Numbered from the stretch's first letter, positions 6,846 to 39,885 are shown. The stretch: 64,000 nucleotides of DNA from Flavobacteriales bacterium (GCA_019638085.1 JAHBUL010000016.1:19453-83452); one strand, 5' to 3'. Program-made: numbers and translations. Notes: generated by a model from the letters alone, not told the origin.

Positions 6846-6890
6846 TTACTTCAACGCCTCCACCCACACCACTTCCGGCGCTGCACGCTT
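6846..6890 (-). repeat. displaced duplicate of the last 14 codons plus stop of the NifU-like gene (direct repeat partner of 8092-8136)
   Basis: Copy at 6846-6890: TTACTTCAACGCCTCCACCCACACCACTTCCGGCGCTGCACGCTT. Copy at 8092-8136: TCACTTCAACGCTTCCACCCGCACCACTTCCGGGGCTACCCGCTT. They match at 39 of 45 positions. The fragment encodes KRAAPEVVWVEALK* against the gene's KRVAPEVVRVEALK*. Confidence 0.8.
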
Positions 6891-8033: not shown

Positions 8034-8091
8034 TTCAAGCTCTGCTGGATCAGACTCTGATCAATTCGGAAAGGTCATGCTGAGATCCTCC

Positions 8092-10015: not shown

Positions 10016-10109
10016 GGCTTGCTTCGGCAGGATGAAGGTACACTTCAATGGACATACTGTTCCAAAACCGCATTAAACTCCCTATTTACAGGTAGAGATG
10101 GCAATCTTC

Positions 10110-10469: not shown

Positions 10470-10561
10470 TGAAGTGAAACCGCCAAGGCGCAAAGCTCGC
10501 CAACAATGCGCTAAACGTGCTGTTTTCCTAGTTGAGCTTTTCGCGTCTTGGCGGTACAGGA

Positions 10562-13778: not shown

Positions 13779-14891
13779 TCAACGCACTTTGGGTAGCGTG
13801 AAGCTGAAAGTGGTTCCCTTGCCCTGCGTGCTCTTTGCCATGATCGTTCCGCCGTGGCTTTCCACGATGTGTTTTGCGATCGCCAGGCCCAGCCCACTTC
13901 CTCCTTCGTTGCGTGCGCGGCTGCTCCCCACCCGATAGAACCGCTCGAACAAACGTGGGAGATGTTCCGGCATGATGCCCGGTCCATCATCGGCCGCTTC
14001 CACCAGCACCTGCTCGCCCGTGTCGAATGCGCGGATCGTACACGTACCGCCTTCGCGCCCGTAATTGATGGCGTTGAGCAAGATGTTGCCAAAGACCTGT
14101 TCCAAGCGGTCCATGTCGGCCATCACCCAGGTCGCTCCATCGATGCCGTTGATCAGGGAGAATCCACGTTCGGCAGCCTTCTTCCGTAAGTCCCCAATGA
14201 CCGTATCCACAGGGATGTTGAGGTCCATTCGATCGATCCGCATGTCCAACACGCCGCTTTCCATGGCGGAGATCAATCCCAGATCTTCCACAATGCGGAT
14301 CATGCGTTCCACGCCCTTGTCCGCACGCTGCAAAAAATCCCGGTTCACCTTGGGGTCTTCCAACCCCCCTTCCAGCAAGGTTAGGATGTAGCCTTGGATG
14401 TTGAAGATCGGTGTGCGCAGCTCGTGGGCCAAGTTCCCGATGAACTCGCGACGGTACCGTTCCCGTTCCCGAAGCTCCTTGATCTCGGGATATTTTCCTT
14501 CGGCCCATGCTGATACCTCGTTGCTCACATCCCCAATGTCATCACCGGCTATATGCGTACCCTTGGAGCGCCCCCTGCGCGCCTCATGCACGGTGCGATG
14601 GAGCAGGTCCACCCGGTCCTGTACGTAGCGTTTCACCACCAGAAAGGTGATCCCCAGCGGGATGAAAAAACTGACGAGCATGACCACGCCGATCGTTCGT
14701 GCGGAAACATCCATGTCATCCGCCTCGGCAAGCAGGTACAACGATAATCCCACGGCGACCGAGGTGAGCACGGCCGTTACCAAGGCGATGCGAAGGGGCG
14801 AGCGGGGTTGCATCGCAGGTAAAGGTAGGTGCCGCCCGCTCCGGAATTTCGCGCTCCTGTACGTGTTCATGTGGTGCGGCGGGCTTAACAC
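13779..14891 (-). CDS. sensor histidine kinase (PhoR-like by context), no adjacent response regulator
   Basis: H-box NLAHELRTP, N box LLNAINYG, and G boxes DDGPGI and GGSGLGLAI. There are two N-terminal TM segments. The start may instead be the ATG at 14813 (MQPRSP...). Confidence 0.85.
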   Translation of the reverse strand: MLSPPHHMNTYRSAKFRSGRHLPLPAMQPRSPLRIALVTAVLTSVAVGLSLYLLAEADDMDVSARTIGVVMLVSFFIPLGITFLVVKRYVQDRVDLLHRTVHEARRGRSKGTHIAGDDIGDVSNEVSAWAEGKYPEIKELRERERYRREFIGNLAHELRTPIFNIQGYILTLLEGGLEDPKVNRDFLQRADKGVERMIRIVEDLGLISAMESGVLDMRIDRMDLNIPVDTVIGDLRKKAAERGFSLINGIDGATWVMADMDRLEQVFGNILLNAINYGREGGTCTIRAFDTGEQVLVEAADDGPGIMPEHLPRLFERFYRVGSSRARNEGGSGLGLAIAKHIVESHGGTIMAKSTQGKGTTFSFTLPKVR

Positions 14892-23530: not shown

Positions 23531-26500
23531 TCAGCGAACGAGCGTTACATGGCCGATGTGCTCGAAGCGCGTGTTCGCTACCATGTCCTGTCCCGTAAGC
23601 TTCCACACATAGACTCCGATCGGTGCGGGATTTCCGTTGCTGAAATTCCCGTCCCATTTCGCGTTCATATCCTCGGTGTTGTACACCTCCTTCCCCCACC
23701 GATCCACGATGATGAAATGGTAATCGTTCGGGTCGAGTCCCATGACCACCGGTGCGAATTCATCGTTGATGCCATCCCCATCCGGGGTGAAGGCGTTGGC
23801 CGTGAACACGGAAGCACTGGCGGGTACCAACAGGTCCTCACAGATCGTGTCCGAACAAGTGGGTGAGGCATAGGCGATCAGGCAAATGGGGTAGATCTCT
23901 TCCACGTTGTACGGGAAGGTGAATTGCGGATTCGCCAGTGTGGATGTACCCATACCCCCAAAGTCCCAGAGGTATGCACTAGCGCCTGTACTCCCGTTGG
24001 CGAAAGCGGCAGTAGGACTGGTCGTACTTGTGATCCGGCCTACGATGCTGAAGGCTGCAACGGGCCTTTCCACCACACGCACAAGTTGATCCACCTCGGT
24101 GGTAACCGCACATCCATTCCCTGGATCAGCGGTGAAGTGTACCACGTAGTTCCCGGGCTGGTCATAGGTGATCGTGATGGGACCACAATCGGTGGTATCC
24201 ATTCCATTACCGAAGTTCCAGTAGCATGTTCCATCTCCGGCATAGCCGCTGGTGAACGTGACCTGCACGGGCACACATCCCTCGCTCATCTCGAAGTTTG
24301 GTGCGACATCCGGAATGGGCGTCACAGTGACCTCCACGCTGGCGATATCCTGCTGGCACGGCGCTGGTGCGGTCACGGTATAGATGTAGGAACCACTGAT
24401 CGCCGCAGTCGGATCAAGAATACCATCGGCGCTGATCCCTGCGGGACCGGACCATGTTCCTCCAACATCCGGTGTGCCGCTGAGCAAGTTGAAAAGCTGG
24501 AAGGACTCAGCATTCGCGCAGACGGTGGTGTCGCCATCAATGCCGGCGTAGGCCGCTGGGGAAACGCTGATGTCCACGGTGGCCACCGCTTGTGCGCAAC
24601 TGGCCACAGCAGGCATTAGATAGCTGTATGCTCCTGGGATGGAGCTGCTCGGGTCGAATGTCGCCGAAGTGGCATTGCCATCCGGATCTGTCCAAGAACC
24701 TCCAGCATCCGGCTCGCCACCCAGTAAATTCAACATGTTCACGGGTGGGTTGATGCTGCACAAGGCCGCCGTGGTATCATTTCCTGCGTCCGGAGCCTGT
24801 ACTACTACCACGACCACCTCGGCAGAGGCCGATGGACAAGGCGAGGCGCCTTGGACGGTGTAGATATAGGTTCCTGATGAATTCGTGCTCGGATCGAGAA
24901 TGCCGTTGAAGGGATCATTGTTGGGCGGCATGGTCCAGGTTCCTCCGGCATCCGGAGCACCGCCAAGCTCGCCGAACAGCGCCACCGGAGCGCCGTCGCT
25001 GCATACGCTCAGTGCACCGTTCGTTCCGGCATCCACAGCATGATTGATGGAGAGGCTCACTACCGCTGATGCATCCGGGCAGGAAGCATTGCCTGTAACG
25101 GTATAGGTATATGGCCCCTCCTCGGCGGTTGCCGGGTTGATGGATGCTGAAGTAGCGAGCCCATCCGGACCGATCCAGGTGCCGCCTTGCTGCGGATTCC
25201 CTGAGAGTAGGCCATGCAAGTTCACCACCGGGCCTGCATCACAGAGTGCCACCGCATTGTCCTGGCCTGCATTAGGTCCGGGAAGGACGATCATTTGTAC
25301 CGTGGCGGAAACATCCGCACAAACACCGCCGATGAATTGGTAAGTGTACACGCCTTGCGTGGAAGTTGCAGGATCGAAAATTCCGGTCGAAGTACCTCCG
25401 GGTCCTGTCCAGGTACCACCTTGATCGGGGTTTCCGCCGAGGAGCGTGAACAGGTTGACAGGGGCATCTCCCGTGCATACTGTATCGAGCGCATTGATGC
25501 CGGGGTCTTGCGGGGCTTCGATCACCACCTCAACTTCAGCGGTGGCATCCACACAAGGAGGTGTGGCACTCAGCGTATATGTGTAAATACCTGCGGTATT
25601 CACTACCGGATCGAACTGGTCGTTCGTGATCGTGCTGGGACCGCTCCACGTTCCGCCGGCATCGGGGCTACCGCCCAACTGCGTGAAGAGGTTGATCGCG
25701 GAGCCATCCTCACAGACCGTCACCGACCCATCGGTGCCCGCGTTCGGGCTGCCCGTCTCAGTGACCGTTACCGTGGCGCTTGCGCTGCCGCAAGGTGCCG
25801 TGCCTGTCACCGTATAGGTGTAATCACCGGGGGCCATCGTCGCGGGATCGTACTGATCGCCCGTCACCGGGCTTGGACCGCTCCAGCTGCCGCCGGTGTC
25901 CGGGGTGCCGAGCGCCGCCAGCAGGCTCACCGCTGCACCTTGGTCGCAGACCGTGAGGTCACCATCCGTGCCGGCGTCAGGGGTGGGGACTTCGATGACC
26001 GTGACCGTCGCCTGATCACCAATACATGGAGGAGCGCCTGGTAGCGAATAGATGAAAGCGCCCGGCGGCGTAACACCAGGAACATAAGATCCACTGAATC
26101 CTCCCGACCATGTGCCGCCAGGCTGGGCTCCGTCCAACATGGTGAACAGGTTCACTGCACTACTGCTCGAGCACAGGGTAATGGTGGTATCACGCCCGGC
26201 ATTCGGTGCGGTGACCTCCACCACGGTTACCACTGCCTGATCACTAGCACAAGGAGCAATCCCGTTGACCGTGTAGATATAGGGTCCTTCAGGATCAACA
26301 GTTGGTTCGTAAGTGCCATCGAATAAAATGCCACTCGGTCCAGTCCAAGCTCCACCACCTTGGGCGCCGGTCAACACGAAGAACAGGTTCGTTGTGCTAT
26401 TGGAGGAGCACAGGGTGAAGATCGTATCCAACCCAGCATTGGGAGAAACCACTTCGTTCACCGTCACCGTGGCCGTCGCATTCCCGCAGGGTGCCACACC

Positions 26501-29116
26501 GGTAACCGTGTATACGTACGCTCCGGGCAACATCGACGAGGGGTCGTACTGACCGCCTGCAACAGCGCTCGGACCGGACCATGAGCCTCCTGCATCCGGC
26601 GTGCCACCAAGGGAATCGATCAAGTTGACCGCAGCACCGTTCGAGCAGATGTCGATCGCGCGGCTCGTTCCAGCGTTCACCGGAGCCTGCTCGGTCACCG
26701 TGACCGTGGCCGTGGCATTCCCGCAAGGCGAGGTGCCGACAACCGTGTACACATACGCGCCTGGCAACATCGTCACGGGATCGTACTGACCACCCGCAAC
26801 GGCACTGGGACCGGACCATGTGCCTCCTGCATCCGGCGTACCACCTAAGGAATCGATCAGGTTGACCGCAACACCGTTCGCGCAGATGTCGATCGCACGG
26901 CTCGTACCGGCGTTGGCAGGGGCCACTTCCGCAACAGTTACAGTGGCGGTGGCACTTGCACAAGGCGCCACTCCCACAACCGTGTACACATATGCGCCAG
27001 GGAGCATCGATGCAGGATCGTACATATTGCCCACCACCGCGCTCGGGCCACTCCATGTGCCACCGGCAGCAGGAGTGCCGCCAAGAGAATCACGTAGATT
27101 GATCGCTACACCGTTGGAACAAATATTGATCGCGCGACTCGTTCCTGCATTCGCTGGGGTCTGTTCCGCTACGGTCACTGTGGCCGTCGCGTTCGCGCAA
27201 GGAGCCGTACCCGTAACCGTGAAGACATATGGTCCGGGGTTCATCGAAGCGGGATCGTACATACCGCCCACTACCGCGCTGGGACCGCTCCAAGTGCCAA
27301 CGGCAGCAGGTGTGCCACCTAGGGAATCACGCAAGTTGATCGCAATTCCATTCGCACAGATACTAATTGAGGTACTGGTCCCTGCATTGGGTGCAGCTAC
27401 TTCCGTAACGGTAACGGTGGCGCTGGCCGAGGCACACCCCCCACTACCGGGCACGGTATAAACAAATACGCCTGGAGCTTGTGTGGCCGGATCGTAGTTG
27501 GCACCAACCGCTGCACCCGTGGATTGTCGGGTCCATGCACCTGTGGCATCCGGCGTGCCGCCCAAGCCTGTGATCAGCGGAACTGGAGCAGAGTTGCTGC
27601 ATACGTTCAGCGTGCCGTCCGAGCCCGCATTCGGGGTTCCCGTTGTAAAGCTCACGGTAACCGTGGCGCTCACATTGGTGCAGGCGTTGCCCACGGTGTA
27701 CGTGTATACACCCGCTACATCAGTGGCAGGATCGAATTGGGGGCCATGGAGGGAATTGTCAGGTGCGGTCCAATAACCCACCGGGTTCGGCGTTCCGCCC
27801 AAGGCATCGATCAGGTCGAACGTGGTGGCAGTGGGGCACACTTGCACGTTGGCATTGGTCCCTGCATCAGGGGTGCCGGTGATCGGGGTCACTGAAGTAA
27901 TGTTCACTGCAACGGTGGTGGTGTTCACAATGGGACAGGCCCCGTCGGTCACCTGAAGCAGCAGGTTCACCGGTGAGTTGTTCACATTGCCCGTCCAGCA
28001 GATCGTGGCGGTAAGGGGGTTCGTACCGGTGATGTTCACTGTGGAACCCGGCAATAGAGTTGCAGCTTGGGTGGTCAACGACAATACTTCCGCTGCATCC
28101 GGGTCTTCAAAGACGATGCTGAAACAGAAGGGTGAACCACTGCATACTTCAATGGCATTGTTGCCAATGATCAAGCTTCCCCCGGCAGCCGGGTCGCCTG
28201 GACCCGCAGGACCCGTGAGTTGGACAGGCCCTTGGGCATTGGGCGGCTGACTGGAGCAGGCGATCGCGATCATCATGATGTCACGCATCACCGAGCCAAT
28301 GAAGACGCCGTTCGCATCATACTGGTCGATCTGCACCACAAAAACGTATTTTCCGATCACGCCGGGAGTGAACTGCAATTGACCGGTAACCGGATCGAGG
28401 ACAGCACCCGGCGCAGGAACACCACTCGTGAAGGGCGGTTTGTAATTGATCGGCGTGGAGCTGTCCGCAAACCCCCTGGCGGTGATCAGTGAATAGGTCA
28501 TCGGCTGGCCATTGGGATCGGTCACGCCGAAATTGTAATTGACCTGTTGACCGACGCAGATGTAGGGCACGGAGTTCTCCGTGAAATCGGGTGAATCGCT
28601 ACAAGGCTCTATGTCGTTTCGCAGTTCAGCTTCCAAATAAGTGCCCGAGGCACCCACCAGATTCACTGTGGTCGCCCGGCAACAGGATACCCAAGAGAGC
28701 AGCCAGCCTCCCGCGCAAGGCGGCATGTTCACCACCGTTTGGAAACTGTACAGGTTCACGCCTTGCAGCCCGCCCCCATTGCACGTACTGTTCGCGATCT
28801 GTGCGGCACAGATCTGGCTCACCTCCACCGGGGGAGGAGCAGGTATCTCTACACTGAACGTACCGCAAGCACTTGCATAATTCAGTGTTTGGGGTAGGGC
28901 AGGTGTTCCTGTGCAATCATAGAACAGGTCCAAGGTCACCAAGTAATTGTTGCCTCCTTGGCACTCATAGGTAATGTCGCCACCCAACACGTGCGCGGCA
29001 TGCACCTGGAACCCCAGTACCAGGGCAAACAACGCCACGATCATACGCCACGGGCGAAGACTGAGGAAAAGGGAGAGAAAGCCGGGGTGAGCCACAGTTA
29101 AACGTGTTCGATACAA
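23531..29116 (-). CDS. 1861-aa cell-surface adhesin-like protein with T9SS type-B (gliding-motility-associated) C-terminal domain
   Basis: Signal region followed by a Cys-rich N-module (HVLGGDITYECQGGNNYLVTLDLFYDCTG). I count 15 tandem ~79-aa repeats starting xNAGxDxxxxxC, then PKD-like segments (YWNFGNGMDT). The C-terminus FTPDGDGINDEF...IVDRWGKEVY...GVYVWKL is typical of type-B sorting domains. Confidence 0.9.
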   Translation of the reverse strand: MYRTRLTVAHPGFLSLFLSLRPWRMIVALFALVLGFQVHAAHVLGGDITYECQGGNNYLVTLDLFYDCTGTPALPQTLNYASACGTFSVEIPAPPPVEVSQICAAQIANSTCNGGGLQGVNLYSFQTVVNMPPCAGGWLLSWVSCCRATTVNLVGASGTYLEAELRNDIEPCSDSPDFTENSVPYICVGQQVNYNFGVTDPNGQPMTYSLITARGFADSSTPINYKPPFTSGVPAPGAVLDPVTGQLQFTPGVIGKYVFVVQIDQYDANGVFIGSVMRDIMMIAIACSSQPPNAQGPVQLTGPAGPGDPAAGGSLIIGNNAIEVCSGSPFCFSIVFEDPDAAEVLSLTTQAATLLPGSTVNITGTNPLTATICWTGNVNNSPVNLLLQVTDGACPIVNTTTVAVNITSVTPITGTPDAGTNANVQVCPTATTFDLIDALGGTPNPVGYWTAPDNSLHGPQFDPATDVAGVYTYTVGNACTNVSATVTVSFTTGTPNAGSDGTLNVCSNSAPVPLITGLGGTPDATGAWTRQSTGAAVGANYDPATQAPGVFVYTVPGSGGCASASATVTVTEVAAPNAGTSTSISICANGIAINLRDSLGGTPAAVGTWSGPSAVVGGMYDPASMNPGPYVFTVTGTAPCANATATVTVAEQTPANAGTSRAINICSNGVAINLRDSLGGTPAAGGTWSGPSAVVGNMYDPASMLPGAYVYTVVGVAPCASATATVTVAEVAPANAGTSRAIDICANGVAVNLIDSLGGTPDAGGTWSGPSAVAGGQYDPVTMLPGAYVYTVVGTSPCGNATATVTVTEQAPVNAGTSRAIDICSNGAAVNLIDSLGGTPDAGGSWSGPSAVAGGQYDPSSMLPGAYVYTVTGVAPCGNATATVTVNEVVSPNAGLDTIFTLCSSNSTTNLFFVLTGAQGGGAWTGPSGILFDGTYEPTVDPEGPYIYTVNGIAPCASDQAVVTVVEVTAPNAGRDTTITLCSSSSAVNLFTMLDGAQPGGTWSGGFSGSYVPGVTPPGAFIYSLPGAPPCIGDQATVTVIEVPTPDAGTDGDLTVCDQGAAVSLLAALGTPDTGGSWSGPSPVTGDQYDPATMAPGDYTYTVTGTAPCGSASATVTVTETGSPNAGTDGSVTVCEDGSAINLFTQLGGSPDAGGTWSGPSTITNDQFDPVVNTAGIYTYTLSATPPCVDATAEVEVVIEAPQDPGINALDTVCTGDAPVNLFTLLGGNPDQGGTWTGPGGTSTGIFDPATSTQGVYTYQFIGGVCADVSATVQMIVLPGPNAGQDNAVALCDAGPVVNLHGLLSGNPQQGGTWIGPDGLATSASINPATAEEGPYTYTVTGNASCPDASAVVSLSINHAVDAGTNGALSVCSDGAPVALFGELGGAPDAGGTWTMPPNNDPFNGILDPSTNSSGTYIYTVQGASPCPSASAEVVVVVVQAPDAGNDTTAALCSINPPVNMLNLLGGEPDAGGSWTDPDGNATSATFDPSSSIPGAYSYLMPAVASCAQAVATVDISVSPAAYAGIDGDTTVCANAESFQLFNLLSGTPDVGGTWSGPAGISADGILDPTAAISGSYIYTVTAPAPCQQDIASVEVTVTPIPDVAPNFEMSEGCVPVQVTFTSGYAGDGTCYWNFGNGMDTTDCGPITITYDQPGNYVVHFTADPGNGCAVTTEVDQLVRVVERPVAAFSIVGRITSTTSPTAAFANGSTGASAYLWDFGGMGTSTLANPQFTFPYNVEEIYPICLIAYASPTCSDTICEDLLVPASASVFTANAFTPDGDGINDEFAPVVMGLDPNDYHFIIVDRWGKEVYNTEDMNAKWDGNFSNGNPAPIGVYVWKLTGQDMVANTRFEHIGHVTLVR
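24320..27874 (-). repeat. tandem array of 15 x ~237-bp coding repeats inside the 1861-aa adhesin gene
   Basis: Boundaries were derived from residue counts (aa ~415-1599). The period shows in the protein, and also in antisense ORFs that repeat at 237-nt offsets (26601 versus 26820 tracks). Confidence 0.8.
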
Positions 29117-29335
29117 CCCTCAAAACTAAGGTATTGTAGTTTAGTTCGGGTATTCAATTTGCATGACGCGAAACGAGAATGATCCGGCGCATGTAACATG
29201 CAATATTTTGGTGGTGGTGGCATGAGCGTGCATTCTCCACATGTTTTTCCTGTGCTTTCCTTGTGTTCCGCCCCGGACACTACTTTTGGCACCCTTTGTC
29301 CGGATATCCCGGAAAAGTCCCAACGAACCAGGCTG

Positions 29336-31936
29336 ATGCGAAGACCCTACCCCTTCATCCATTCCATCCTTCGCATCCCATTCGTCAAAGTGGCCGTTTT
29401 ATTTGCCTTCGCCGGGGCGCAGGTGGCCCAGGCCCAAGTTGATACCTCAGGAACTTTACGGAACGATAGTTCCTTATTCATCGTCACGCCGGATACTTCC
29501 GCCAGGGAACAGGACATCCGTGCTGGCTCGTTCACCGTAGGCGCGAGCGATCTGGATGCCGAGATCGCCGGGCAGGACGTCTCGGGCATCCTGCGCTCCT
29601 CTCGCGACGTGTTCAATGCCACAGCAGGGTACAATTTTGGTGCGGCCCGTTTCCGGGTAAGGGGCCTCGGGGGCGAATACAGCCCGATCAGCGTCAATGG
29701 TATTGTGATGAACGACCTGGAGAGCGGCTACGCCTCGTGGTCCCTCTGGGGGGGATTGAACGATGTGACGCGCTGGTCCGAAAACCGCACCGGGGTAAGT
29801 GCTTCGCGATACAACTTCGGGAACATCGGCGGCTGGTCCAACATCGACCTGCGCGCTTCCCAACTGCGGAAAGGAACGCGGCTCTCCTATGCCATGACCA
29901 ACAGGACCTATCGCAATCGTGCCATGGGCACCTACAACACGGGCATGATGGCCAATGGATGGGCCTTCAGCATGAGCGGCTCCCTGCGCTGGTCCGACGA
30001 GGGTTATGTGCCCGGCACCTTCTACAATGCCGGCGCCTATTTTCTTTCGGCGGAGAAAAAGATCAATGAAAAGCATAGCATCGGGTTTGTGGGCTTCGGT
30101 GCACCCATCGTTTCCGGCCGCCAAGGACTGGCCGTGGCGGAAGCACAGTCACTCACCGATGACCATTACTACAACCCGAACTGGGGGTACCAGGACGGGA
30201 AGAAACGCAATGCGAACGTGAGCAACGACCATAAACCCGTGCTCATCCTCTCCCACTATTTCAAACCCGACGAACGTACGCAGTGGAACACCAGCCTGCT
30301 GTACACCTTCGGAAGGGATGGCTACACTGCGCTCAACTGGTACGATGCACCGGACCCCCGTCCCGACTACTATCGCTATCTACCGAGCTACTATGACGTC
30401 ACCAACCCCGACATAGCCGCAGACCTAACCAATGCATGGGAGAACGACCCGAGTTCCAGCCAGATCAATTGGGGCCAACTCTACTTCGCCAATGGTAAGA
30501 ACCTGTATACCGTGCGTAATGCGGAAGGCATTCAGGGCAACGACGTCACGGGCATGCGCAGTAAGTACATTGTGGAGGACCGCCGCGCAGACCCGACGCG
30601 TATTGCCCTGAACAGTGTATGGAGCCGGGAGCTGAAGGATGAACTGAAGCTCACCGTAGGTGCCAGCTACAACAGCCAGAAGACGCACTACTTCAAGGTG
30701 ATCGAGGACCTGCTGGGCGGTGATTTCTGGGTGGACCTGGACCAGTTCGCCGCTCGCGACAGCGACGACCCCAATGCTGCACAGAACAACCTGAACACGC
30801 CCAACCACGTGGTGCGCGTGGGGGATGAGTTCGGCTATGACTATGACATCAAGACCAATGTTGCGAACGTATTCGGACAAGTGGAAAAGAAGTGGCGGAA
30901 GCTGGAGGGCTACGCCGGCGTGACCCTTTCCAGTACCACCTTCTGGCGGGATGGCCACTACCAAAAGGCGCTTTTCCCGGAGACATCCTACGGGGAAAGT
31001 GAGAAGCAATCCTTCGTTACGGGCGGCGTGAAGGCTGGTGCGGTGTACAAGATCTCGGGCCGCGAGTACATCACCGCCAATGCAGCCTTCATGAGCAACG
31101 CACCCACGGCCCGGGCAGCTTATCTCAGCCCGCGTACCCGCGATGCAGTAGTGGATGGACTCACCACCGAGAAGGCCTTCAGCGGCGATATCGGATACGA
31201 AGTGCGGATGCCCCGCGTAAAGGGCCGCGCCACCTTGTACTATGCCAGCACCACCGATGGCATTTGGTCGCGCAGCTTCTACCACGATGTGTACCGCACC
31301 TTCGTGAACTACTCCATGACCGGCGTGGCCCGGCTGAACATGGGCCTGGAACTGGGCGCCGAGGTGAAGCTTTCGCCCACTTGGCAACTCACCGCCGTGT
31401 ATGCCGAAGGACAATCGCTCTATAACTCCCGCCCCTCTGCGACCATTACCCGCGATAACAGCGATACCGCCTTGGCCGTGGGCCGCACCGTGTACTGGGA
31501 GAACTACCGCGTAGGAGGTATGCCGCAGCGCGCCGCATCATTGGGCCTGCGGTACAACGCTCCCAAGTTCTGGTCACTCGGGGCCAATGTGAACTACTTC
31601 GGCAACATCTACCTGGACCCCAACCCCGACCGCCGCACGGCGGAAGCCTTGGGTAATCTGGTGGTGGAAGATCCCCAATGGGACGCCCTGCTGGAGCAGA
31701 CCAAGCTGGATAACGGCATCACCATGGATCTCTTCTTCACCAAGAGCTGGCGCCTGAAGAAGAAATACCGCATCGGCTTCAACCTTTCCGTGAGCAACGT
31801 GTTGAACAATACCGACCTGGTCACCGGTGGCTATGAACAATTGCGCTACGTACCCATGGAGATCGACAAATTCCCGCCCAAGCTCAGCTACATGTACGGC
31901 CGCACCTACTTCGCCATGGTCACCCTCAGCTTCTGA
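29336..31936 (+). CDS. TonB-dependent receptor (non-SusC type)
   Basis: Start at the internal ATG, giving signal peptide MRRPYPFIHSILRIPFVKVAVLFAFAGAQVAQA. Plug-like FRVRGLGGEYSPISVNGIVMND, a long beta-barrel, and the C-terminal sequence YFAMVTLSF ending in Phe. Confidence 0.85.
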   Translation: MRRPYPFIHSILRIPFVKVAVLFAFAGAQVAQAQVDTSGTLRNDSSLFIVTPDTSAREQDIRAGSFTVGASDLDAEIAGQDVSGILRSSRDVFNATAGYNFGAARFRVRGLGGEYSPISVNGIVMNDLESGYASWSLWGGLNDVTRWSENRTGVSASRYNFGNIGGWSNIDLRASQLRKGTRLSYAMTNRTYRNRAMGTYNTGMMANGWAFSMSGSLRWSDEGYVPGTFYNAGAYFLSAEKKINEKHSIGFVGFGAPIVSGRQGLAVAEAQSLTDDHYYNPNWGYQDGKKRNANVSNDHKPVLILSHYFKPDERTQWNTSLLYTFGRDGYTALNWYDAPDPRPDYYRYLPSYYDVTNPDIAADLTNAWENDPSSSQINWGQLYFANGKNLYTVRNAEGIQGNDVTGMRSKYIVEDRRADPTRIALNSVWSRELKDELKLTVGASYNSQKTHYFKVIEDLLGGDFWVDLDQFAARDSDDPNAAQNNLNTPNHVVRVGDEFGYDYDIKTNVANVFGQVEKKWRKLEGYAGVTLSSTTFWRDGHYQKALFPETSYGESEKQSFVTGGVKAGAVYKISGREYITANAAFMSNAPTARAAYLSPRTRDAVVDGLTTEKAFSGDIGYEVRMPRVKGRATLYYASTTDGIWSRSFYHDVYRTFVNYSMTGVARLNMGLELGAEVKLSPTWQLTAVYAEGQSLYNSRPSATITRDNSDTALAVGRTVYWENYRVGGMPQRAASLGLRYNAPKFWSLGANVNYFGNIYLDPNPDRRTAEALGNLVVEDPQWDALLEQTKLDNGITMDLFFTKSWRLKKKYRIGFNLSVSNVLNNTDLVTGGYEQLRYVPMEIDKFPPKLSYMYGRTYFAMVTLSF

Positions 31937-31946
31937 TAACAAGAAC

Positions 31947-33236
31947 ATGCAACGCATCACCTTTACCCAACGCATCGCCTTGCTGGCCGTGCCCTTTCTC
32001 CTGGCCACGGCCATCGGCTGTAAGAAGGAATTCGATACGCCACCCGAACGCAGCTTGCCCGAAGGTAGCGTGATCACCATCGCGCAGCTCAAGGCGATGT
32101 ACCAAGGAACCCCCGTACATTTTTCGGACACTGCCGGAGCCGTTAACAGCGTATATGCGGTTGTGACCGCCGATGAGCAGAACGGCAACTTGTACAAGAA
32201 CATCTATGTGCAGGACCACACCGGTGCCATAGCCATGCGGCTGCTCTTCTCCGGTGGCCTCTATCAAGGGGACTCCATCCGGATCTACCTGCCCGGAACC
32301 GTGCTGAGCCCATACAACGGTTTGATGCAACTGGATAGCGTGGACGTGGACAACAACGTGGTGAAGCAGGCGACGGGAGTTGTCATCGCTCCAACCGTCA
32401 CTACGATACAGGCCCTTACCTCGCAAGCGGGACTCGGCGGCAACCTCCAGAGCAAGCTGGTCACCGTCAGCGGTGTACAATTTGTGGACAGCACCGGCAA
32501 TCTCACCTATGCCGACCCGGTGAACCAGATCACCATAAACCGCCAGATCGAGGACTGTAACGGTAACACCGCCGACGTGCGCACTAGCGGCTACTCCAAT
32601 TTTGCCGGCCAGCACCTACCCACCGGTAAGGGCACCTTCACTGGCATCGTCAGCTGGTTCGGAAGCGCTCCACAGCTCTACATTCGCGATATCAACGAGG
32701 TGCAGATGACCGGACCACGTTGTGGCTCCGCAGCGAGCTGTACCCCGATAGCCACCTTGTCAGAAGACTTTTCTTCCGTCAGCAACAATCAATCGATCAA
32801 TTTGGATTGCTGGACCAACACGTTCACACAAGGGAGCGTGGCGTGGCGCGGCAAGGTGAGCGGCTCGGATTTCAGCGCAGAAGCCCGCATCTCGATCGGG
32901 CAGGCGAGCACCATGTGGTTGGTCACACCACAGATCACCTATTCCTCTTCCCTGAACCTTTCCTTCACCTCAGCCAAAGTGAACTGGGTGCATGATGGGC
33001 TTACCGTATGGGTTAGCCCCGATTTCAGTGGTGATGTAACCACCGCAACGTGGACTCAGGTAACCGGTGCAAGCATTGCCGGCCAGAACGATGCGGACAA
33101 CGCATGGATTCCCTCGGGTAACATATCGTTGTCCACTGTTCCCGGGATTACCGATACCTTCGTTGTCGCCTTCAAGTACCAAGGTGATGCGGCCAATTCC
33201 ACCACCTACCGTATTGACGATGTACAGGTGAACTAG
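31947..33236 (+). CDS. surface lipoprotein: tandem OB-fold-like modules (DUF5689-like) plus choice-of-anchor-J-like C-terminal domain
   Basis: Lipobox LATAIGC in MQRITFTQRIALLAVPFLLATAIGCKK. Modules include VYAVVTADEQNGNLYKNIYVQDHTGAI and TFTGIVSWFGSAPQLYIRD. The C-terminal ~150 aa end in YRIDDVQVN. It starts 11 nt after the receptor stop. Confidence 0.7.
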   Translation: MQRITFTQRIALLAVPFLLATAIGCKKEFDTPPERSLPEGSVITIAQLKAMYQGTPVHFSDTAGAVNSVYAVVTADEQNGNLYKNIYVQDHTGAIAMRLLFSGGLYQGDSIRIYLPGTVLSPYNGLMQLDSVDVDNNVVKQATGVVIAPTVTTIQALTSQAGLGGNLQSKLVTVSGVQFVDSTGNLTYADPVNQITINRQIEDCNGNTADVRTSGYSNFAGQHLPTGKGTFTGIVSWFGSAPQLYIRDINEVQMTGPRCGSAASCTPIATLSEDFSSVSNNQSINLDCWTNTFTQGSVAWRGKVSGSDFSAEARISIGQASTMWLVTPQITYSSSLNLSFTSAKVNWVHDGLTVWVSPDFSGDVTTATWTQVTGASIAGQNDADNAWIPSGNISLSTVPGITDTFVVAFKYQGDAANSTTYRIDDVQVN

Positions 33237-33269
33237 AATCCTTCTTTTGACCCCGAAACCCAAACTACC

Positions 33270-34631
33270 ATGAGAACAGCAGTACTCCTTTCAACCCTCG
33301 CGATCGCCGGCCTGGCCAGCGCTCAGGTCTTCCAAAGCGGTTTTGAAGACTGGACCAACAACTTGCCCAATGACTGGGTAGGTGCCAAAACGAATCTTCC
33401 GCTCACCGGGATCACCCAGGTTACCGACAATGTTCACGGGGGCAGTTCCGCCGTCGGCCTAGAGAACACCGCCAGTGGACATAAGCGCTTTACCACGCAG
33501 TCCATTGCAGTGACCAACGGGCAGAATTTTGAGGTATCCTTTTGGGTGCGTGGCACCGGAGAAGTGCGCGTGGGCCTATTTGACGGCCGTCCGGGTGGCA
33601 GCTCAGGATATGCCGGTTACACACCCTACACCGTTGTGTCCTCACCCAACGATTGGATCCAGGTTACCCAGAGCATCGCAGCCGCCTACGATACCACGGA
33701 CGCTGAGTTCATTCTTTCCGTGCGCAATACGGTAGCTCCTACCAACCTCGTTGTGGATGATGTGAACATTACCGAGGCAGGCCCTCTTACCCCGGTCAGC
33801 ATCTATGATATTCAATACACCACGGACCCGAGTGGGGATTCGCCGATGAACGGTCAGACCGTGTTGACCGGAGGTATCGTTTCCGCCGTGCTCCCTGCTG
33901 CGAACGACGGCTATTTCATTCAAAGCGGCATCGGACCATGGACGGGGATCTATGTATACGACACGGACAACTCCCCCGCTATCGGTGATAGCATCACGCT
34001 CATGGCATCCGTGGTGGAATACTTCGGTGGCACGCAGCTTTCAAGTATTTCCGCATATACCGTAGTCTCCAGTGGCAATGCGTTGGTATCCTTCGACGTG
34101 GCTACGGGTGATGTTTCGCTTGAGCCATTGGAAAGTGTGCTGATACGCGTTGTGAACGCCACCTGCACCGAGGAACCCGGCGGTGCCAACTTCGGGAAGT
34201 ACAAAGTGAATGATGGCACCGGTGACGCCGTGATCGGCAAAGTGATCTACACCACCACCCCCGACCCCGTGCTTGGTAATACGTACAACATCACCGGGGT
34301 GAACTACTATTCCTTCTCGGAGTACAACATTCAGCCCCGCATGGCCAGCGATGTTGAGTTTGGCTCCGGTATCACCGGTGCAGGTATCCTTGCCACTGTA
34401 AGCGTTGGTCCAAATCCCGCCACTAACCTGATCAATGTAAACCTCGGTAATGCCGCAGGAAGCAATGTGAACTATACCCTCACCGATCTGCAAGGTCGCA
34501 CGGTACAGGCCGGTCAGATCAGCGACAGCCGCGCCCAGCTGAGCGTGAACGACATGCCAACCGGCCTCTACCACCTCACCCTCCGCAGCAACGAACTGGT
34601 GAAGACCTTCGCTGTGCAGGTGGTCCGATAG
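33270..34631 (+). CDS. secreted protein: CBM-like N-domain, nuclease-associated OB-fold-like module, T9SS type-A C-terminal sorting domain
   Basis: Signal peptide MRTAVLLSTLAIAGLASAQ. IYDIQYTTDPSGDSPMNGQTVLTGGIVSAV...DGYFIQS resembles the N-terminal module of ExeM/NucH-type nucleases. C-terminal domain: VGPNPATNLINVNL...LTDLQGRTV...GLYHLTLRS. Confidence 0.75.
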   Translation: MRTAVLLSTLAIAGLASAQVFQSGFEDWTNNLPNDWVGAKTNLPLTGITQVTDNVHGGSSAVGLENTASGHKRFTTQSIAVTNGQNFEVSFWVRGTGEVRVGLFDGRPGGSSGYAGYTPYTVVSSPNDWIQVTQSIAAAYDTTDAEFILSVRNTVAPTNLVVDDVNITEAGPLTPVSIYDIQYTTDPSGDSPMNGQTVLTGGIVSAVLPAANDGYFIQSGIGPWTGIYVYDTDNSPAIGDSITLMASVVEYFGGTQLSSISAYTVVSSGNALVSFDVATGDVSLEPLESVLIRVVNATCTEEPGGANFGKYKVNDGTGDAVIGKVIYTTTPDPVLGNTYNITGVNYYSFSEYNIQPRMASDVEFGSGITGAGILATVSVGPNPATNLINVNLGNAAGSNVNYTLTDLQGRTVQAGQISDSRAQLSVNDMPTGLYHLTLRSNELVKTFAVQVVR

Positions 34632-34650
34632 ATCGTTCCTACCTTTTGAG

Positions 34651-34684
34651 AAAGGGCCGCTTCGCAACTGCGAGGCGGCCCTTT
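34651..34684 (+). terminator. strong GC-rich hairpin after the three-gene operon
   Basis: AAAGGGCCGCTTCGCA-ac-TGCGAGGCGGCCCTTT is a 16-bp stem with one mismatch, 20 nt after the stop and followed by CGCTTT. Confidence 0.55.
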
Positions 34685-34806
34685 CGCTTTGGGCACTGGA
34701 GGCTTGGGACCCTTCAGCAAAGCTTGGGCTTCCCGGAAATGAACAATGGCGGCATCGGCCTTGTTGCCCCATATATCCACAACCACAAGGAACACAGAAC
34801 ACCAGA

Positions 34807-35622
34807 TTGATAATGAGCAACACCGAACTGGCGATCACGAGAGTCAAGGAACTTATACTCACGTATGGCCCGAAGGTCATCGGTGCCATTGTAGTACTGA
34901 TCGTGGGCCTATGGGTGATCCGCTTATTGGTGTCATCCATGGCGCGCCTGATGCGAAAACGCGAGGTGGACCCGAGCTTGGTCCCCTTTGTCCGCGGGCT
35001 GGTCGGGGCGATCTTGAAGCTGGGTCTGATCATCAGTGTGATCCAAATGATCGGTGTGGAGACCACGAGCTTCATCGCGGTGCTCGGGGCCATGGGCCTG
35101 GCGATCGGCATGGCATTGAGCGGCACCTTGCAGAATTTCGCCGGCGGGGTGATGATCCTGCTCTTCAAGCCCTACAAGGTGGGTGACTTCATCGATGCGC
35201 AAGGCCACACCGGGACCGTTCACAGCATCCAGATCTTCAATACGGTGCTGAAGACACCGGACAACAAGACGGTGATCCTGCCCAACGCACCGATCAGCAC
35301 CGGGGCCATCGTCAACTTCAGTACGGAACCACAACGGCGGGTGGACATGAGCTTCGGTATCGGCTACGATGATGACATCGACGCGGCCAAGCGGACGCTC
35401 CAGGAATTGATCGATGCCGATGAGCGCATCCTGAAGGACCCGGCACCGCTGATCGTGGTGGGCGAATTGGCGGACAGTTCGGTGAACTTTACCGTGCGTG
35501 TGTGGGCCAAGGCTGGAGATTATTGGGGCATCTACTTCAACATGCACGAGCAGGTGAAGAAGACCTTCGATGCGAAAGGCATCAGCATTCCCTTCCCGCA
35601 GGTGCAAATGCACTCGACTTGA
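34807..35622 (+). CDS. small-conductance mechanosensitive channel (MscS family)
   Basis: 271 aa with three TM segments, then the pore-lining GLAIGMALSGTLQNFAGGVMILLFKPYKVGDFI followed by a beta domain. Confidence 0.9.
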   Translation: MIMSNTELAITRVKELILTYGPKVIGAIVVLIVGLWVIRLLVSSMARLMRKREVDPSLVPFVRGLVGAILKLGLIISVIQMIGVETTSFIAVLGAMGLAIGMALSGTLQNFAGGVMILLFKPYKVGDFIDAQGHTGTVHSIQIFNTVLKTPDNKTVILPNAPISTGAIVNFSTEPQRRVDMSFGIGYDDDIDAAKRTLQELIDADERILKDPAPLIVVGELADSSVNFTVRVWAKAGDYWGIYFNMHEQVKKTFDAKGISIPFPQVQMHST

Positions 35623-36701: not shown

Positions 36702-38894
36702 TTATTTCGAAAGTACCTTGAACTCCGTGCGGCGATTGGCCTGATGCTGTTCCTCGGTACACTTGTTGCATTCGCAGGTCTCCACTGGCTTGGACTCTCC
36801 ATAGCCTTTCGCTGTGAGGCGATCCTTGGCGATGCCCTGCTTGATCAAATAGTCCACTGCACTCTTGGCCCGCTTATCCGAGAGTCGCATGTTGTAATCA
36901 TCATTACCTCGGCAGTCCGTATGTGAGCTCAGCTCGATCTTCACCGAGGGGTTATCGTTCAGGGTTTGTACGAGCTTATCCAGCTCAAGTGCTGCATCCG
37001 GGCGGATGTTCCACTTGGCCAGATCGTAGTAGATGTTGTCCAAGCGCACCACTTGGTCCACCTGCAACGGATAGAGGTTGAAGTCGGTATGGATCACCGT
37101 ATTGGTCTTCCCTTTGGTGGATATCCGCGCGCTTTGCTTGAAGAAGCCTTCGCGATCCACTACGAGGCGGTAGTCGCCTTCAGCCTGAAGCGCGAACAGG
37201 TAGTGCCCGTCCGGACCGGTGAGCATTTCCTCCATCAGGCTACCATCCGCTGCCATCAATTGCACCTTGGCGCTATCGAGCGGAACTTTCGTCTCACCGT
37301 GCCTTACGATGCCTTCCGCCCCGTAGTCGTACTTCTCCATCTGCACCACTACGTTCTCGAGGTCGTCCTTCTCGCTGTCCACCGTGGTTGTGCCTTGTCG
37401 GTAGCCATTGCGACTGGCCGTAATGACGTACTTCTCACTGTAGGGCAATTCGATGGCGAATCGACCCCCTTCAAGCATTTCCACTTTGGCGCCATCGATG
37501 AAATTCCCGTTCGCGTCGCGGATATCCAGCAACGCGCCCTCCACAGCGGCTTGTGAGAGTTTGTCCACCACGATGCCACGGATGTGGATACGGGGAGGAT
37601 GAACCGTGCATCCGTAGATATCATCACCTCCTACACCGCCCGGTCGGTCACTGACGAAGAAGCCGGTGCTATCATCGGCCAGTAGGATCAAGCCATGGTC
37701 GTTGTGAACGGTGTTCATGGGATACCCCAGGTTGAACACGCGGCCAGGACCTGCGGCAGTAAGGCGCACGGAGAAGATATCATAGCCGCCAAGCCCGGGA
37801 TGCCCTGTACTGCTGAAGTAGAGTGTGCTGTCGGCCGTGATGAACGGATACATTTCACTACCCGGTGTGTTCACCTTGCTGCCAAGGTTCTTGGGTTCAC
37901 CCCATTCCCCTTGCAGATCGTCGCAATACCAGATGTCGGTACCGCCCATTCCGCCGGGCTTGTCACTCACGAAATACAAGCGCTTGCCATCGGGTGAGAC
38001 CCCGGGCTGGCCCATGTTGTACTCCGGGTCGTTGTGTAGGAAAGGCACCAAGGGTCCCCATTCGGGTTGCCCGAATTCACCCTTCGTGATGTCGGAATAA
38101 TAGATGCCCAACTTCACCTCTCCATTGGTTGCCTTGAGCAACCTGCCGTAATAGAGGTTGTCGCGGGTGAGGTAAAGGCGCTGTCGGGTTGAATCGAACG
38201 AGGCGCTACCATCGTGATAGCGGCTGTTCACGTCCTTACGCATCACCATGGGGTCACTGGCGGTCTCGCCTTTCAGCAAAGCGGAATACAGGTTCAGGAA
38301 AGGTTCGCGGTCCCACTTGTACGTGCTCTTCCCCCCTACTCCTTCGCCCCGTGCACTGCTGAAGAGGAGCAGGTCGTTCATCACTGCCGGGGCGAGGTCG
38401 GCCTGCGGTGAATTGATGGGCAACTTCCTGACCACATCCTTGGTGCTATCGCGCTCGAGCTTTTCGAAGAAGTCGCCGTTCTTCACGTAGGCCTTCACCC
38501 AATCGTCGTCCGGTGCTTTCTCTGAATAGGTCGTGTACCAGGTCAGTGCCTCCTCATACTTGCCTTGTGCGCGCAACTGATTGGCATAGGCGAGCATGTC
38601 GTCCGGTGCCGGATCACCCAGTTCCATCAGCCTCTTGTAGGTGTTCGCGGCCTTCTCATTCTCGCCGAGTTTCTTGTAGGCGAAGGCCAGCTGCCTGTAA
38701 TCCGCGGGCACGGCCTTCTTTCCTGCTATGATATCCTCATACACCTTGGCCATGTTCTGGTAGTCGAACACTGCGGCATAGCGCTCCGCCATGCGATGTT
38801 TCAAGGATTGCGCCTGCACGGCCGGTGCTGCCAGCAACAGCAAGGCCATTGCGAGGATGAAGTGCCGGGGGCGCATGGGTATGGATCGCTGCAT
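36702..38894 (-). CDS. OmpA-family protein (TPR-like + TolB-like beta-propeller repeats + OmpA C-terminal domain)
   Basis: 730 aa with propeller-like repeats GGTDIWY, GGYDIFS and GGDDIYG. The OmpA domain reads VKIELSSHTDCRGNDDYNMRLSDKRAKSAVDYL. It lies 5 nt downstream of the PorP/SprF gene. Confidence 0.9.
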   Translation of the reverse strand: MQRSIPMRPRHFILAMALLLLAAPAVQAQSLKHRMAERYAAVFDYQNMAKVYEDIIAGKKAVPADYRQLAFAYKKLGENEKAANTYKRLMELGDPAPDDMLAYANQLRAQGKYEEALTWYTTYSEKAPDDDWVKAYVKNGDFFEKLERDSTKDVVRKLPINSPQADLAPAVMNDLLLFSSARGEGVGGKSTYKWDREPFLNLYSALLKGETASDPMVMRKDVNSRYHDGSASFDSTRQRLYLTRDNLYYGRLLKATNGEVKLGIYYSDITKGEFGQPEWGPLVPFLHNDPEYNMGQPGVSPDGKRLYFVSDKPGGMGGTDIWYCDDLQGEWGEPKNLGSKVNTPGSEMYPFITADSTLYFSSTGHPGLGGYDIFSVRLTAAGPGRVFNLGYPMNTVHNDHGLILLADDSTGFFVSDRPGGVGGDDIYGCTVHPPRIHIRGIVVDKLSQAAVEGALLDIRDANGNFIDGAKVEMLEGGRFAIELPYSEKYVITASRNGYRQGTTTVDSEKDDLENVVVQMEKYDYGAEGIVRHGETKVPLDSAKVQLMAADGSLMEEMLTGPDGHYLFALQAEGDYRLVVDREGFFKQSARISTKGKTNTVIHTDFNLYPLQVDQVVRLDNIYYDLAKWNIRPDAALELDKLVQTLNDNPSVKIELSSHTDCRGNDDYNMRLSDKRAKSAVDYLIKQGIAKDRLTAKGYGESKPVETCECNKCTEEQHQANRRTEFKVLSK

Positions 38895-38899
38895 CTGGA

Positions 38900-39883
38900 T
38901 CAGAAATAACGGGGTGAGCGGATCCCTTTCGGTGCGTTACCGAAGTCGAGACCGAGCATGAATTCATGCGAACCACCGCTGTAGTTACGTATGGCCGATA
39001 TGGGATAGTCATAGGCATAACCCACGGAAAGACCATCCGTAAGGTTGTATTGCACCAAGGCGCCAACGGCATCGGTGTAGCGGTACATGGCACCGAGCCA
39101 TAACTTCTCATACAGGAGGAAGTTCGCACTGAGGTCGAAGCTCATGGGCGCGCCTTGCACGGCCTTTACCATGAAGGTGGGCTTGAACTTGGTGTACATG
39201 CCCAGATCGAAGACATATCCGCCCGTGAGGAAGTAGTGTGCGCGCTGGCCCGGCTCGCTGACCAACTGGAGCGAGTCCACATCGAAGAAGTCCGTGCGCA
39301 GGATCTTGGGCGAACTCAGTCCGAGGTAGAACCTATCGCTGTACCACATGACCCCAAAGCCGAATTGGGGATCGGTCTTGGTGCTCACGTCCTGTTGGAA
39401 TACCTGATCGTTCGCCTCCAAGGGATTGAGTGCGGCGAAATCCCCTTGGAAGAGATTCAGTCCGCCCTTCAGTCCGAAGGCCAGCTTTTGGTTGTTCCCG
39501 AGGAAGATCCGATAGGCGAGGTCCACGTTCAATCCGTATTGCGTAACAGGTCCGTGTTCATCGCGCATCACCGTTCCGCCCAAGCCCAAGCTCTGCAATA
39601 CCAGCGGGCTGTGGACCGTGAGGGTCTGCGTGGTAGGTGCACCCTCAAAGCCCACCCATTGGTGCCTGCTGAGGGCCTTCATACTCACCCGGTCAGCGCT
39701 TCCCGCGTAGGCAGGGTTCAGTGCCAGTAGATTGAACATGTACTGGGTGTACTGCGGGTCCTGCTGGGCCTGTGCCTGCTTGGTGAGCAGGATCGGACAG
39801 GCCATCAGTAGCGCGAGCAACGCCATATTCCAACGGGAGGCTTGTGATGCCATCTGCGTGGTGTTTTTCGTGGTTGCTTTCAT
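38900..39883 (-). CDS. PorP/SprF-family type IX secretion system membrane protein
   Basis: 327 aa. The hallmark N-terminus QQDPQYTQYMFNLLALNPAYAG and HQWVGFEGAPTT are present. It is beta-barrel-like and ends in RSPRYF. It lies 2 nt downstream of the giant type-B cargo gene. Confidence 0.9.
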   Translation of the reverse strand: MKATTKNTTQMASQASRWNMALLALLMACPILLTKQAQAQQDPQYTQYMFNLLALNPAYAGSADRVSMKALSRHQWVGFEGAPTTQTLTVHSPLVLQSLGLGGTVMRDEHGPVTQYGLNVDLAYRIFLGNNQKLAFGLKGGLNLFQGDFAALNPLEANDQVFQQDVSTKTDPQFGFGVMWYSDRFYLGLSSPKILRTDFFDVDSLQLVSEPGQRAHYFLTGGYVFDLGMYTKFKPTFMVKAVQGAPMSFDLSANFLLYEKLWLGAMYRYTDAVGALVQYNLTDGLSVGYAYDYPISAIRNYSGGSHEFMLGLDFGNAPKGIRSPRYF

Positions 39884-39885
39884 GA

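Follow-up and report, generated by a model that had tools for sequence, protein, structure and literature searches.

A 64,000-nucleotide stretch of DNA (the window; GCA_019638085.1, JAHBUL010000016.1:19453-83452) from the genome of an uncultured Flavobacteriales bacterium (3.99 Mb, 99% complete, ~58% G+C) contains three open reading frames (ORFs) at 29336-34631 on the plus strand, separated by gaps of 10 nt and 33 nt. The first gene encodes a putative TonB-dependent transporter of the outer membrane, divergent, not of the SusC kind and assigned to the DdbC / RA0C_RS04915 type (P0001, 29336-31936, 866 aa). The second gene encodes a surface lipoprotein of the DdbD / RA0C_RS04920 type (P0002, 31947-33236, 429 aa). 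The product of the third gene (P0003, hereafter P3, 33270-34631, 453 aa) is a type A cargo protein of the type IX secretion system (T9SS) lacking a catalytic domain. The trio probably represents, with odds of about three to one, a Ddb / Riemerella-type outer-membrane apparatus that captures and imports extracellular nucleic acid, in a T9SS-served variant of Flavobacteriales; its functional steps are deduced from homology and gene neighbourhood.

This reading is based on the domain architecture of P0002 (lipobox, DUF5689, DUF5017 / choice-of-anchor J), which is the same as that of RA0C_RS04920, DdbD also being a DUF5689 protein. It is further based on the homology of P0001 to transporters preceding DUF5689 lipoproteins, with annotation and pairing in Flavobacterium as described previously (PMC8459023), and on the match of the P3 core to nuclease modules, the conservation of the trio as a unit and the nuclease genes adjoining it. 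The transporter/DUF5689 core is already known; the third gene and the present architecture are undescribed. A literature search brought up no account of P3 proteins as a family, of their proposed origin from the binding module of a nuclease, of their delivery by the T9SS or of the transporter subtype without the N-terminal domain.

The transporter/DUF5689 pair and known systems

P0002 carries the lipobox AIGC with Cys25 at 32019-32021. The DUF5689 tandem-barrel module occupies residues 42-252 (32070-32702; Pfam PF18942, 2.3e-45, 155.6 bits, cut-off 28.6) and is followed by a choice-of-anchor-J / DUF5017 jelly roll at residues 271-428 (32757-33230; NCBIfam choice_anch_J, 54 bits, cut-off 30; Pfam DUF5017, 1.9e-8). 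The N-terminus CKKE(F/Y)DxPP is conserved throughout the P0002 family, and residues R112, K140, R199, R212, Y216 and R247 of P0002 are invariant. A search of the PDB with the P0002 family profile gave nothing meaningful, and a homologue search confined to a region of P0002 retrieved close relatives only. P0002 is the sole DUF5689 lipoprotein of the window's genome, in which the P0001 transporter likewise has no paralogue.

Transporters encoded directly upstream of DUF5689 lipoproteins share 35-43% identity with P0001 over ~800 aa (E 0 to 2e-158). These relatives come from five other Bacteroidia families, nuclease-bearing loci and one Flavobacterium sp. included. They carry CarbopepD_reg and an equally weak Plug, and are named by NCBI TonB-dependent receptor or carboxypeptidase-like regulatory domain protein. 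According to the N-terminal alignment, P0001 and the sequences nearest to it lack the CarboxypepD_reg domain of these relatives. No NCBIfam model, and hence no SusC/RagA model, matches P0001. P0001 and P0002 share 35% and 27% identity, respectively, with the Flavobacterium sp. pair, which has the same NCBI annotations as the homologues of the Riemerella pair.

That DNA can cross the outer membrane through a TonB-dependent transporter, with no type IV pilus involved, was recognised recently and in two organisms only. Huang et al. (2021, PMC8459023) demonstrated that markerless deletion of either RA0C_RS04915 or RA0C_RS04920 abolishes natural transformation in Riemerella anatipestifer. RA0C_RS04915, which bears the annotation carboxypeptidase-regulatory-like domain protein, forms a barrel in the outer membrane; the adjacent gene RA0C_RS04920, co-transcribed with it, encodes a protein with DUF5689 and DUF5017 / choice-of-anchor J. 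RA0C_RS04920 was proposed to bind DNA, and RA0C_RS04915 to serve as the passage. Homologues of both genes are widespread and adjacent in Flavobacteriaceae (PMC8459023).

In Bacteroides thetaiotaomicron, ddbABCDEF is needed for the depletion of exogenous DNA and for the production of uracil and xanthine from DNA (Sharan et al., PNAS 2025, PMC12478041). Its products are three nucleases, the TonB-dependent transporter DdbC (WP_008762511.1), the DUF5689 protein DdbD (WP_048698952.1) and the non-catalytic lipoprotein DdbE (WP_146072611.1). DdbC and DdbD are homologous to the Riemerella pair, and a DdbC-DdbD complex is predicted by AlphaFold3. DdbD resembles the HIN (double-OB) domain of p202, which binds double-stranded DNA, and was proposed to act as a DNA-binding lid (PMC12478041).

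The present trio shares with ddb the order of transporter and DUF5689 surface lipoprotein, a layout like that of a polysaccharide utilization locus (PUL) without SusD, and an additional non-catalytic surface protein (DdbE, in the SusE/F position); like ddb, it would work with secreted and periplasmic nucleases. The two systems differ in several respects. The nuclease genes belong to the ddb locus, whereas in the present genome they are found on another contig. The accessory protein is delivered here by the T9SS by means of a type A sorting domain and consists of a carbohydrate-binding module (CBM)-like jelly roll and a nuclease-type tandem-OB module, whereas DdbE is a lipoprotein of the signal peptidase II type. 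P0001 lacks the N-terminal CarboxypepD_reg domain, and the host is an uncultured environmental member of the Flavobacteriales with ~58% G+C rather than a gut member of the Bacteroidales.

The system of Riemerella, which belongs to the same order Flavobacteriales, is similar in its pair of a barrel and a DUF5689 + DUF5017 / choice-of-anchor-J protein. RA0C_RS04915, unlike P0001, has the carboxypeptidase-regulatory-like N-domain, and a P3-type gene is not described there. P0002 matches the Riemerella-derived model lipo_M949_1556 (NF052645) at full length (residues 17-428 vs 15-456 of 457), but the score of 161.9 bits is far under the cut-off of 475. In SusC/SusD/SusE-F PULs, too, a single operon supplies the outer-membrane TonB-dependent transporter, its lipoprotein lid and further binding proteins of the surface; here, in contrast, there is no SusC/RagA match, SusD or glycoside hydrolase, and the binding modules are OB barrels common to nucleases. 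No SusD gene lies next to gene 1, the place being taken by the DUF5689 gene.

Some side observations concern the DUF5689 lipoproteins of other families. Two consecutive DUF5689 lipoprotein genes occur in several of them (genomes listed: G153, G268, G032, G196, G286 and G392), and yet other families possess single lipoproteins with two DUF5689 copies (e.g., L088:5626-7035).

P3, a non-catalytic relative of secreted nucleases

P3 starts with a signal peptide (residues 1-18, at the beginning of the plus-strand gene 33270-34631). It is followed by a CBM4/16/22-like jelly roll at residues 19-172 (33324-33785; Pfam CBM_4_9, Foldseek), a tandem OB-barrel core at residues 175-366 (33792-34367; sequence profiles, secondary structure of the AlphaFold2 (AF2) model) and a T9SS type A sorting domain at residues 378-451 (34401-34622; Pfam / NCBIfam). 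The sorting domain matches TIGR04183 (32.3 bits, cut-off 23) and PF18962 (40.2 bits, cut-off 27, residues 380-447), and the matches to sorting domains in the PDB include 5jvk and 8glj. [quoted passage not shown] The full-length Foldseek search was dominated by the N-terminal jelly roll; the OB core was assigned by sequence profiles and secondary structure.

The core resembles the N-terminal modules of several secreted nucleases. P3 matches the ExeM/NucH model (NF033681) with 32.2 bits (cut-off 300), the match covering positions 2-119 of 546, i.e., the N-terminus of the model. The alignment with the N-terminal DUF5689-type module of a T9SS-delivered phospholipase D (PLD)-type nuclease, encoded in the third position of a related locus, spans both barrels (P3 residues 191-368; hhalign 98.5%, E 1.6e-15). 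The P3 family profile also matches OB3 of the Streptococcus pyogenes nuclease SpnA (PDB 9sf8/9sf9, E ~1e-6). In SpnA, OB2 and OB3 are needed for DNA binding and cleavage (PMC13601614). Furthermore, P3 is 42% identical over 62 residues to a T9SS DUF5689-PLD nuclease of its own genome, and in ~740-aa nuclease ORFs of many genomes, among 401 of Bacteroidia surveyed, the segments found by the P3 profile coincide with those found by PF18942. A single-sequence search of the PDB with the P3 core gave chance Tudor matches only.

Owing to the profile matches to the PLD nuclease, SpnA OB3 and the own-genome nuclease, P3 can be regarded as a putative substrate-binding module of the secreted nuclease of the system. 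Its tandem-OB core is homologous to the N-terminal substrate-binding modules of ExeM/NucH, SpnA and T9SS DUF5689-PLD nucleases. P3 is not a nuclease itself, since it lacks an endonuclease/exonuclease/phosphatase (EEP), PLD or other catalytic domain and has the CBM-like jelly roll instead; no Exo_endo_phos match was obtained with Pfam. It also differs from ExeM/NucH-type nucleases by the absence of LTD. Judging by the sequence comparison, P3 looks like the third-position secreted nuclease minus its catalytic domains, plus a CBM-like jelly roll, in the same operon position.

The presence of this jelly roll brings in the uptake of a glycan or another non-nucleic-acid polymer. In such a system P3 and the P0002 jelly roll would bind polysaccharide (of matrix or algal/plant origin), the OB-like barrels would be scaffolds, and the transporter would import oligosaccharides. 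CBM_4_9 (PF02018) scores above the cut-off (27.1 vs 25.9 bits), and the best domain-level Foldseek matches of the N-terminal domain are CBM16, CBM22 and CBM4 modules (template modelling score ~0.6-0.7 on target, E ~1e-6). Relatives are named by NCBI 'carbohydrate binding domain-containing protein'; Trp, Arg and His are conserved in the P3 jelly roll, and both P0002 and P3 are acidic. However, no glycoside hydrolase, lyase or SusD adjoins the trio in the annotated flanks, while nucleases are recurrent neighbours (37/83 loci). The tandem-OB core is common to PLD, EEP and SpnA nucleases, and homologous transporter/DUF5689 pairs have genetic DNA phenotypes (PMC8459023, PMC12478041). Uptake of glycan or another such polymer by the trio is very improbable.

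Within the nucleic-acid reading, a more specific proposal could be made for P3, and it is a tentative one. P3 could be a non-catalytic DNA receptor displayed by the T9SS, which evolved from the PLD nuclease of the locus by loss of the catalytic domains and gain of the jelly roll. Together with the transporter/DUF5689 gate it could constitute the general outer-membrane route by which abundant uncultured Flavobacteriales living in wastewater and lakes take in long extracellular DNA. If so, the DNA entering by this route could be food or transforming DNA, resistance genes included. A catalytically dead, nuclease-derived, putative binding protein delivered by the T9SS would make the trio a distinct form of DNA-uptake machine, conserved across many uncultured Flavobacteriales of activated sludge, lakes and soils. 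If P3 catches DNA, it would offer a handle on how abundant heterotrophs consume dissolved DNA, a large pool of phosphorus and nitrogen, as well as on natural transformability and hence gene flow in wastewater communities. By sequence comparison, P3 would also illustrate neatly how the substrate-binding module of an enzyme can give rise to a binding protein.

Related arrangements of the same modules were observed elsewhere. At L093 (G179:C45, 4801-9492), a P3 homologue (471 aa, 34% identity) occurs with no DUF5689 lipoprotein or transporter detectable nearby; ~1.1 kb upstream on the same strand lies a gene for a T9SS nuclease with 2xPLDc_2 and without the DUF5689 module. This locus may represent a 'disassembled' nuclease with its binding and catalytic parts on separate proteins. 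P3 without DUF5689 is also found in G308, G323, G375 and G007, and one genome of the window's genus contains two consecutive P3 genes (G390:C3:319028-321865). In a Breznakibacter-like genome (G218, L097, 7570-9600), the third gene encodes a 676-aa lipoprotein with an N-terminal DUF5689 module and a C-terminal domain 25% identical to the N-terminal jelly roll of P3 (E 1.5e-7). This lipid-anchored protein thus has the modules of P3 in reversed order, and it may be a DdbE-like counterpart.

Conservation, nuclease linkage and proposed uptake route

The search of species-representative genomes found 440 relatives of P0002, and gene order was examined in 80 of them, all belonging to the trio clade. 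The order transporter-DUF5689-P3 is the same in 77/80 loci listed, with a 2-kb insertion before P3 in one of the 77; the remaining three loci are cut by the contig end, and in one of them, L059, P3 was not detected downstream. Identities over the 80 loci amount to 48-92% for the transporter, 41-86% for the DUF5689 lipoprotein and 33-78% for P3. Three further, more divergent metagenomic loci have the same trio order. All 13 genomes of the window's genus (its own and 12 others) possess the trio. In the set of 401 Bacteroidia genomes, DUF5689 was found in 147 (93/199 genera), and a DUF5689 gene adjoins 27 of the 33 full-length P3 genes.

In 37 of 83 orthologous loci the trio has an adjoining gene of the Exo_endo_phos_3 (EEP) family, which is placed convergently behind P3 or divergently ahead of the transporter gene. 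It is followed by a DUF5689-PLD nuclease in seven of these loci and by a T9SS Endonuclease_1 in three. In the canonical relative L088 the genes encode, in order, a divergent EEP nuclease (Exo_endo_phos_3), a CarbopepD_reg-Plug transporter, a lipoprotein with 2xDUF5689 and a T9SS nuclease with DUF5689 and 2xPLDc_2.

In the window's own genome, an EEP gene of the signal peptidase I (SPI) type and a DUF5689-PLD-T9SS nuclease gene form a divergent pair on another contig, C17 (L087, C17:20000-36000, at 5981-9305). The T9SS protein has 792 aa with DUF5689 and 2xPLDc_2; the likely true start of the Exo_endo_phos_3 enzyme yields the SPI signal MTIFSRLLFLFASAFLIHGASAQ. Since an EEP/PLD pair flanks the transporter/DUF5689 genes in other families, the system appears to be split over two loci in this genome. 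Comparison of the loci indicates that the nuclease genes moved away from the trio in the window's own clade.

The substrate of the trio could also be a phosphodiester polyanion or phosphorylated nutrient other than DNA (RNA, teichoic-acid-like polymers, glycerophosphodiesters). The trio would then act mainly in phosphorus scavenging without being DNA-specific. The Exo_endo_phos_3 family spans phosphatases, phosphodiesterases and nucleases; in one orthologous locus, the flanking genes include a two-component system and a GDPD glycerophosphodiesterase; in the window itself, two Na/Pi-PhoU transporter genes are present, as is a histidine kinase gene close to that of a nuclease. GDPD and the response regulator, however, adjoin the trio in only 1 to 2 of 83 loci, and the upstream region shows no conserved Pho-type operator. 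Partners of the PLD type and Endonuclease_1 belong to nuclease families, and the characterised homologues act on DNA. Such a substrate is unlikely.

In that one orthologous locus (L003, a metagenome contig of the Joint Genome Institute, JGI), a HisKA/response-regulator pair (1612-3665) lies upstream of the divergent trio, and the GDPD gene (9946-10977) overlaps the end of the P3-like gene, whose 657-aa product is named 'predicted extracellular nuclease' by JGI. This arrangement hints at phosphate-linked regulation in the L003 lineage only.

Several observations weigh against the assignment of the trio to nucleic-acid import. The identification of P0001 as a transporter rests on weak Plug and barrel signals: the Plug match (residues 67-166) reaches 22.5 bits, under the Pfam cut-off of 23.9, and there is no match to TonB_dep_Rec or another barrel family of Pfam. 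The P0001 family profile retrieved nothing from the PDB at E <= 0.01, the best match being the transporter OprC (E 0.037). The family is very distant from solved TonB-dependent transporters, which fits the published view of DdbCD as a structurally distinctive family. Homology of P0001 and P0002 to DdbC/DdbD and to the RA0C pair is probable by a transitive link, via DUF5689-paired transporters. In the AF2 model of P0002, made from a 10-sequence alignment, pLDDT is <50 over DUF5689, and the published p202/HIN likeness is not reproduced. P3 and P0002 show a weak similarity (hhalign E ~5e-4, probability ~30%) in register, OB1 to OB1 and jelly roll to jelly roll, which suggests a permuted domain order between the two proteins. 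The CBM-like jelly roll of P3 could bind glycan, and no nuclease is encoded in the operon or its immediate flanks. Finally, the composition of the modules is odd for polyanion binders: the DUF5689 module of P0002 is acidic (isoelectric point (pI) 4.9), and P3 has a pI of 4.2, its first barrel containing seven Tyr and no Lys or Arg. Acidity of P0002 and P3 is family-wide, nuclease-linked loci included, and for this reason it was set aside as an argument against DNA binding.

A sequence-only reading of the window had described a tight same-strand trio closed by a hairpin, with a non-SusC TonB-dependent receptor, a lipoprotein with OB-like modules and a choice-of-anchor-J-like domain, no SusD, and a T9SS type A protein with an ExeM/NucH N-terminal-like core and no catalytic domain. 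The ORF coordinates and domain searches given here agree with this description, and the peptides quoted in it are located at residues 69-95 and 230-248 of P0002 and 178-219 of P3. The profile searches and co-occurrence analysis it had proposed assigned the modules of the soluble proteins to DUF5689 and ExeM/NucH-type OB and demonstrated conservation of the trio as a unit. Its suggestion of surface capture and hand-off to the transporter is supported by these assignments, by the conservation and by the adjoining nucleases, with the CBM4/16/22-like jelly roll of P3 as a caveat. The statement that no functional characterisation was known is outdated, the transporter/DUF5689 pair having been studied genetically in R. 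anatipestifer (PMC8459023) and B. thetaiotaomicron (PMC12478041).

For the preferred nucleic-acid apparatus the following course of uptake could be proposed. P3 would be exported by the T9SS and displayed on the cell surface or released near it, where it could bind extracellular DNA by its tandem-OB core, of the type used by secreted nucleases for substrate holding. P0002 would form a substrate-binding lid on the transporter, as SusD does on SusC, and, by homology to DdbD / RA0C_RS04920, could take over DNA or its fragments via the DUF5689 double barrel. P0001, judging by its homologues, would move the substrate to the periplasm at the expense of TonB energy. Cleavage of the DNA could be performed by unlinked nucleases, namely the SPI-type EEP and T9SS DUF5689-PLD enzymes encoded on C17 and possibly the Endonuclease_NS encoded at 12427-13689. 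Imported DNA could serve as a source of phosphorus, nitrogen and nucleobases, as transforming DNA via ComEC/DprA, or as both.

Alternatively, the trio could chiefly serve natural transformation, providing entry through the outer membrane as its counterpart does in Riemerella, with long DNA imported intact and nutrition secondary. R. anatipestifer cannot be transformed without the homologous pair (PMC8459023), the operon, unlike ddb, contains no nuclease, and with P3 as a non-catalytic binder the length of the DNA would be preserved. The genome has ComEC and DprA, but they do not discriminate, being near-universal (10 to 11 of 14 control genomes). Nucleases adjoin the trio in 45% of orthologous loci, and the lineage is uncultured. 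A chiefly transforming role is less likely than not; it overlaps the nucleic-acid apparatus proposed above and is not exclusive of it.

Control elements and neighbouring genes

A putative promoter of the Bacteroidota type was located at 29261..29288 on the plus strand, with TTG at 29261-29263 and the -7 element TACTTTTG at 29281-29288, 48 nt before the start codon of gene 1. A promoter consensus with a -7 element is established for Bacteroidota, and a sigma-70 promoter scan is uninformative for this phylum. Of 16 orthologous loci compared, 12 have the motif TAnnTTTG conserved 44-64 nt upstream of the gene 1 start. The motif lies within the aligned block CTACnTTTGgCaCCCTT; in these 16 loci the surrounding upstream DNA is otherwise unconserved. 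No conserved operator or Pho box was found in the orthologous upstream regions, the promoter block being the only conserved element. An alternative start of gene 1 at 29198 is allowed by the ORF; the start at 29336 is more likely, because the conserved -7 motif falls inside the extension of the longer ORF.

The trio is followed by a hairpin at 34650..34685 on the plus strand, a probable terminator with a 16-bp G+C-rich stem and a 4-nt loop. Its free energy is -37.3 kcal/mol (z = -7.55), and none of 200 shuffled sequences was equally stable. The T-tract of the hairpin is weak, and it is therefore absent from the list of the consensus terminator scan. The short gaps, the conserved promoter motif and the strong closing hairpin indicate that the three genes are a single predicted operon.

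The immediate flanks of the operon are the gene of an unrelated T9SS adhesin (23531-29116, minus strand) and an MscS channel gene (34807-35622). More distant parts of the window contain a gene of a secreted Endonuclease_NS (12427-13689), 15.6 kb upstream of the trio, and two Na/Pi-PhoU transporter genes (14938-16626 and 59461-61152). The sequence-only reading had connected the trio with the secreted nuclease and the phosphate transporters; the genes are indeed present, but they lie 13-25 kb from the trio, outside the operon. The window-type endonuclease adjoins the trio in none of 83 loci, and the Na/Pi-PhoU genes likewise are not conserved neighbours. Endonuclease_NS and the two transporters fit a phosphorus theme, the connection being mere proximity within the window, with no operon linkage.

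Endonuclease_NS has 420 aa, an SPI signal and a C-terminal OB-like extension of ~130 aa. Between its gene and that of the Na/Pi cotransporter-PhoU fusion (14938-16626), a histidine kinase is encoded on the opposite strand (13779-14891), so that these genes constitute a phosphate/nuclease cluster.

Two T9SS cargo proteins of giant size, each with a type B (CHU_C) sorting domain, are also encoded in the window, in the regions 23531-29116 and 36702-49626. One of them has 1861 aa, the other 3246 aa with at least eight K319L-like PKD repeats. After the gene of the 3246-aa cargo, and in the same orientation, come a PorP/SprF gene (38900-39883) and a gene of an OmpA/PD40/TPR/CarboxypepD_reg protein (36702-38894). 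A type B cargo with a dedicated PorP partner is the usual layout, and it is seen here for the 3246-aa cargo.

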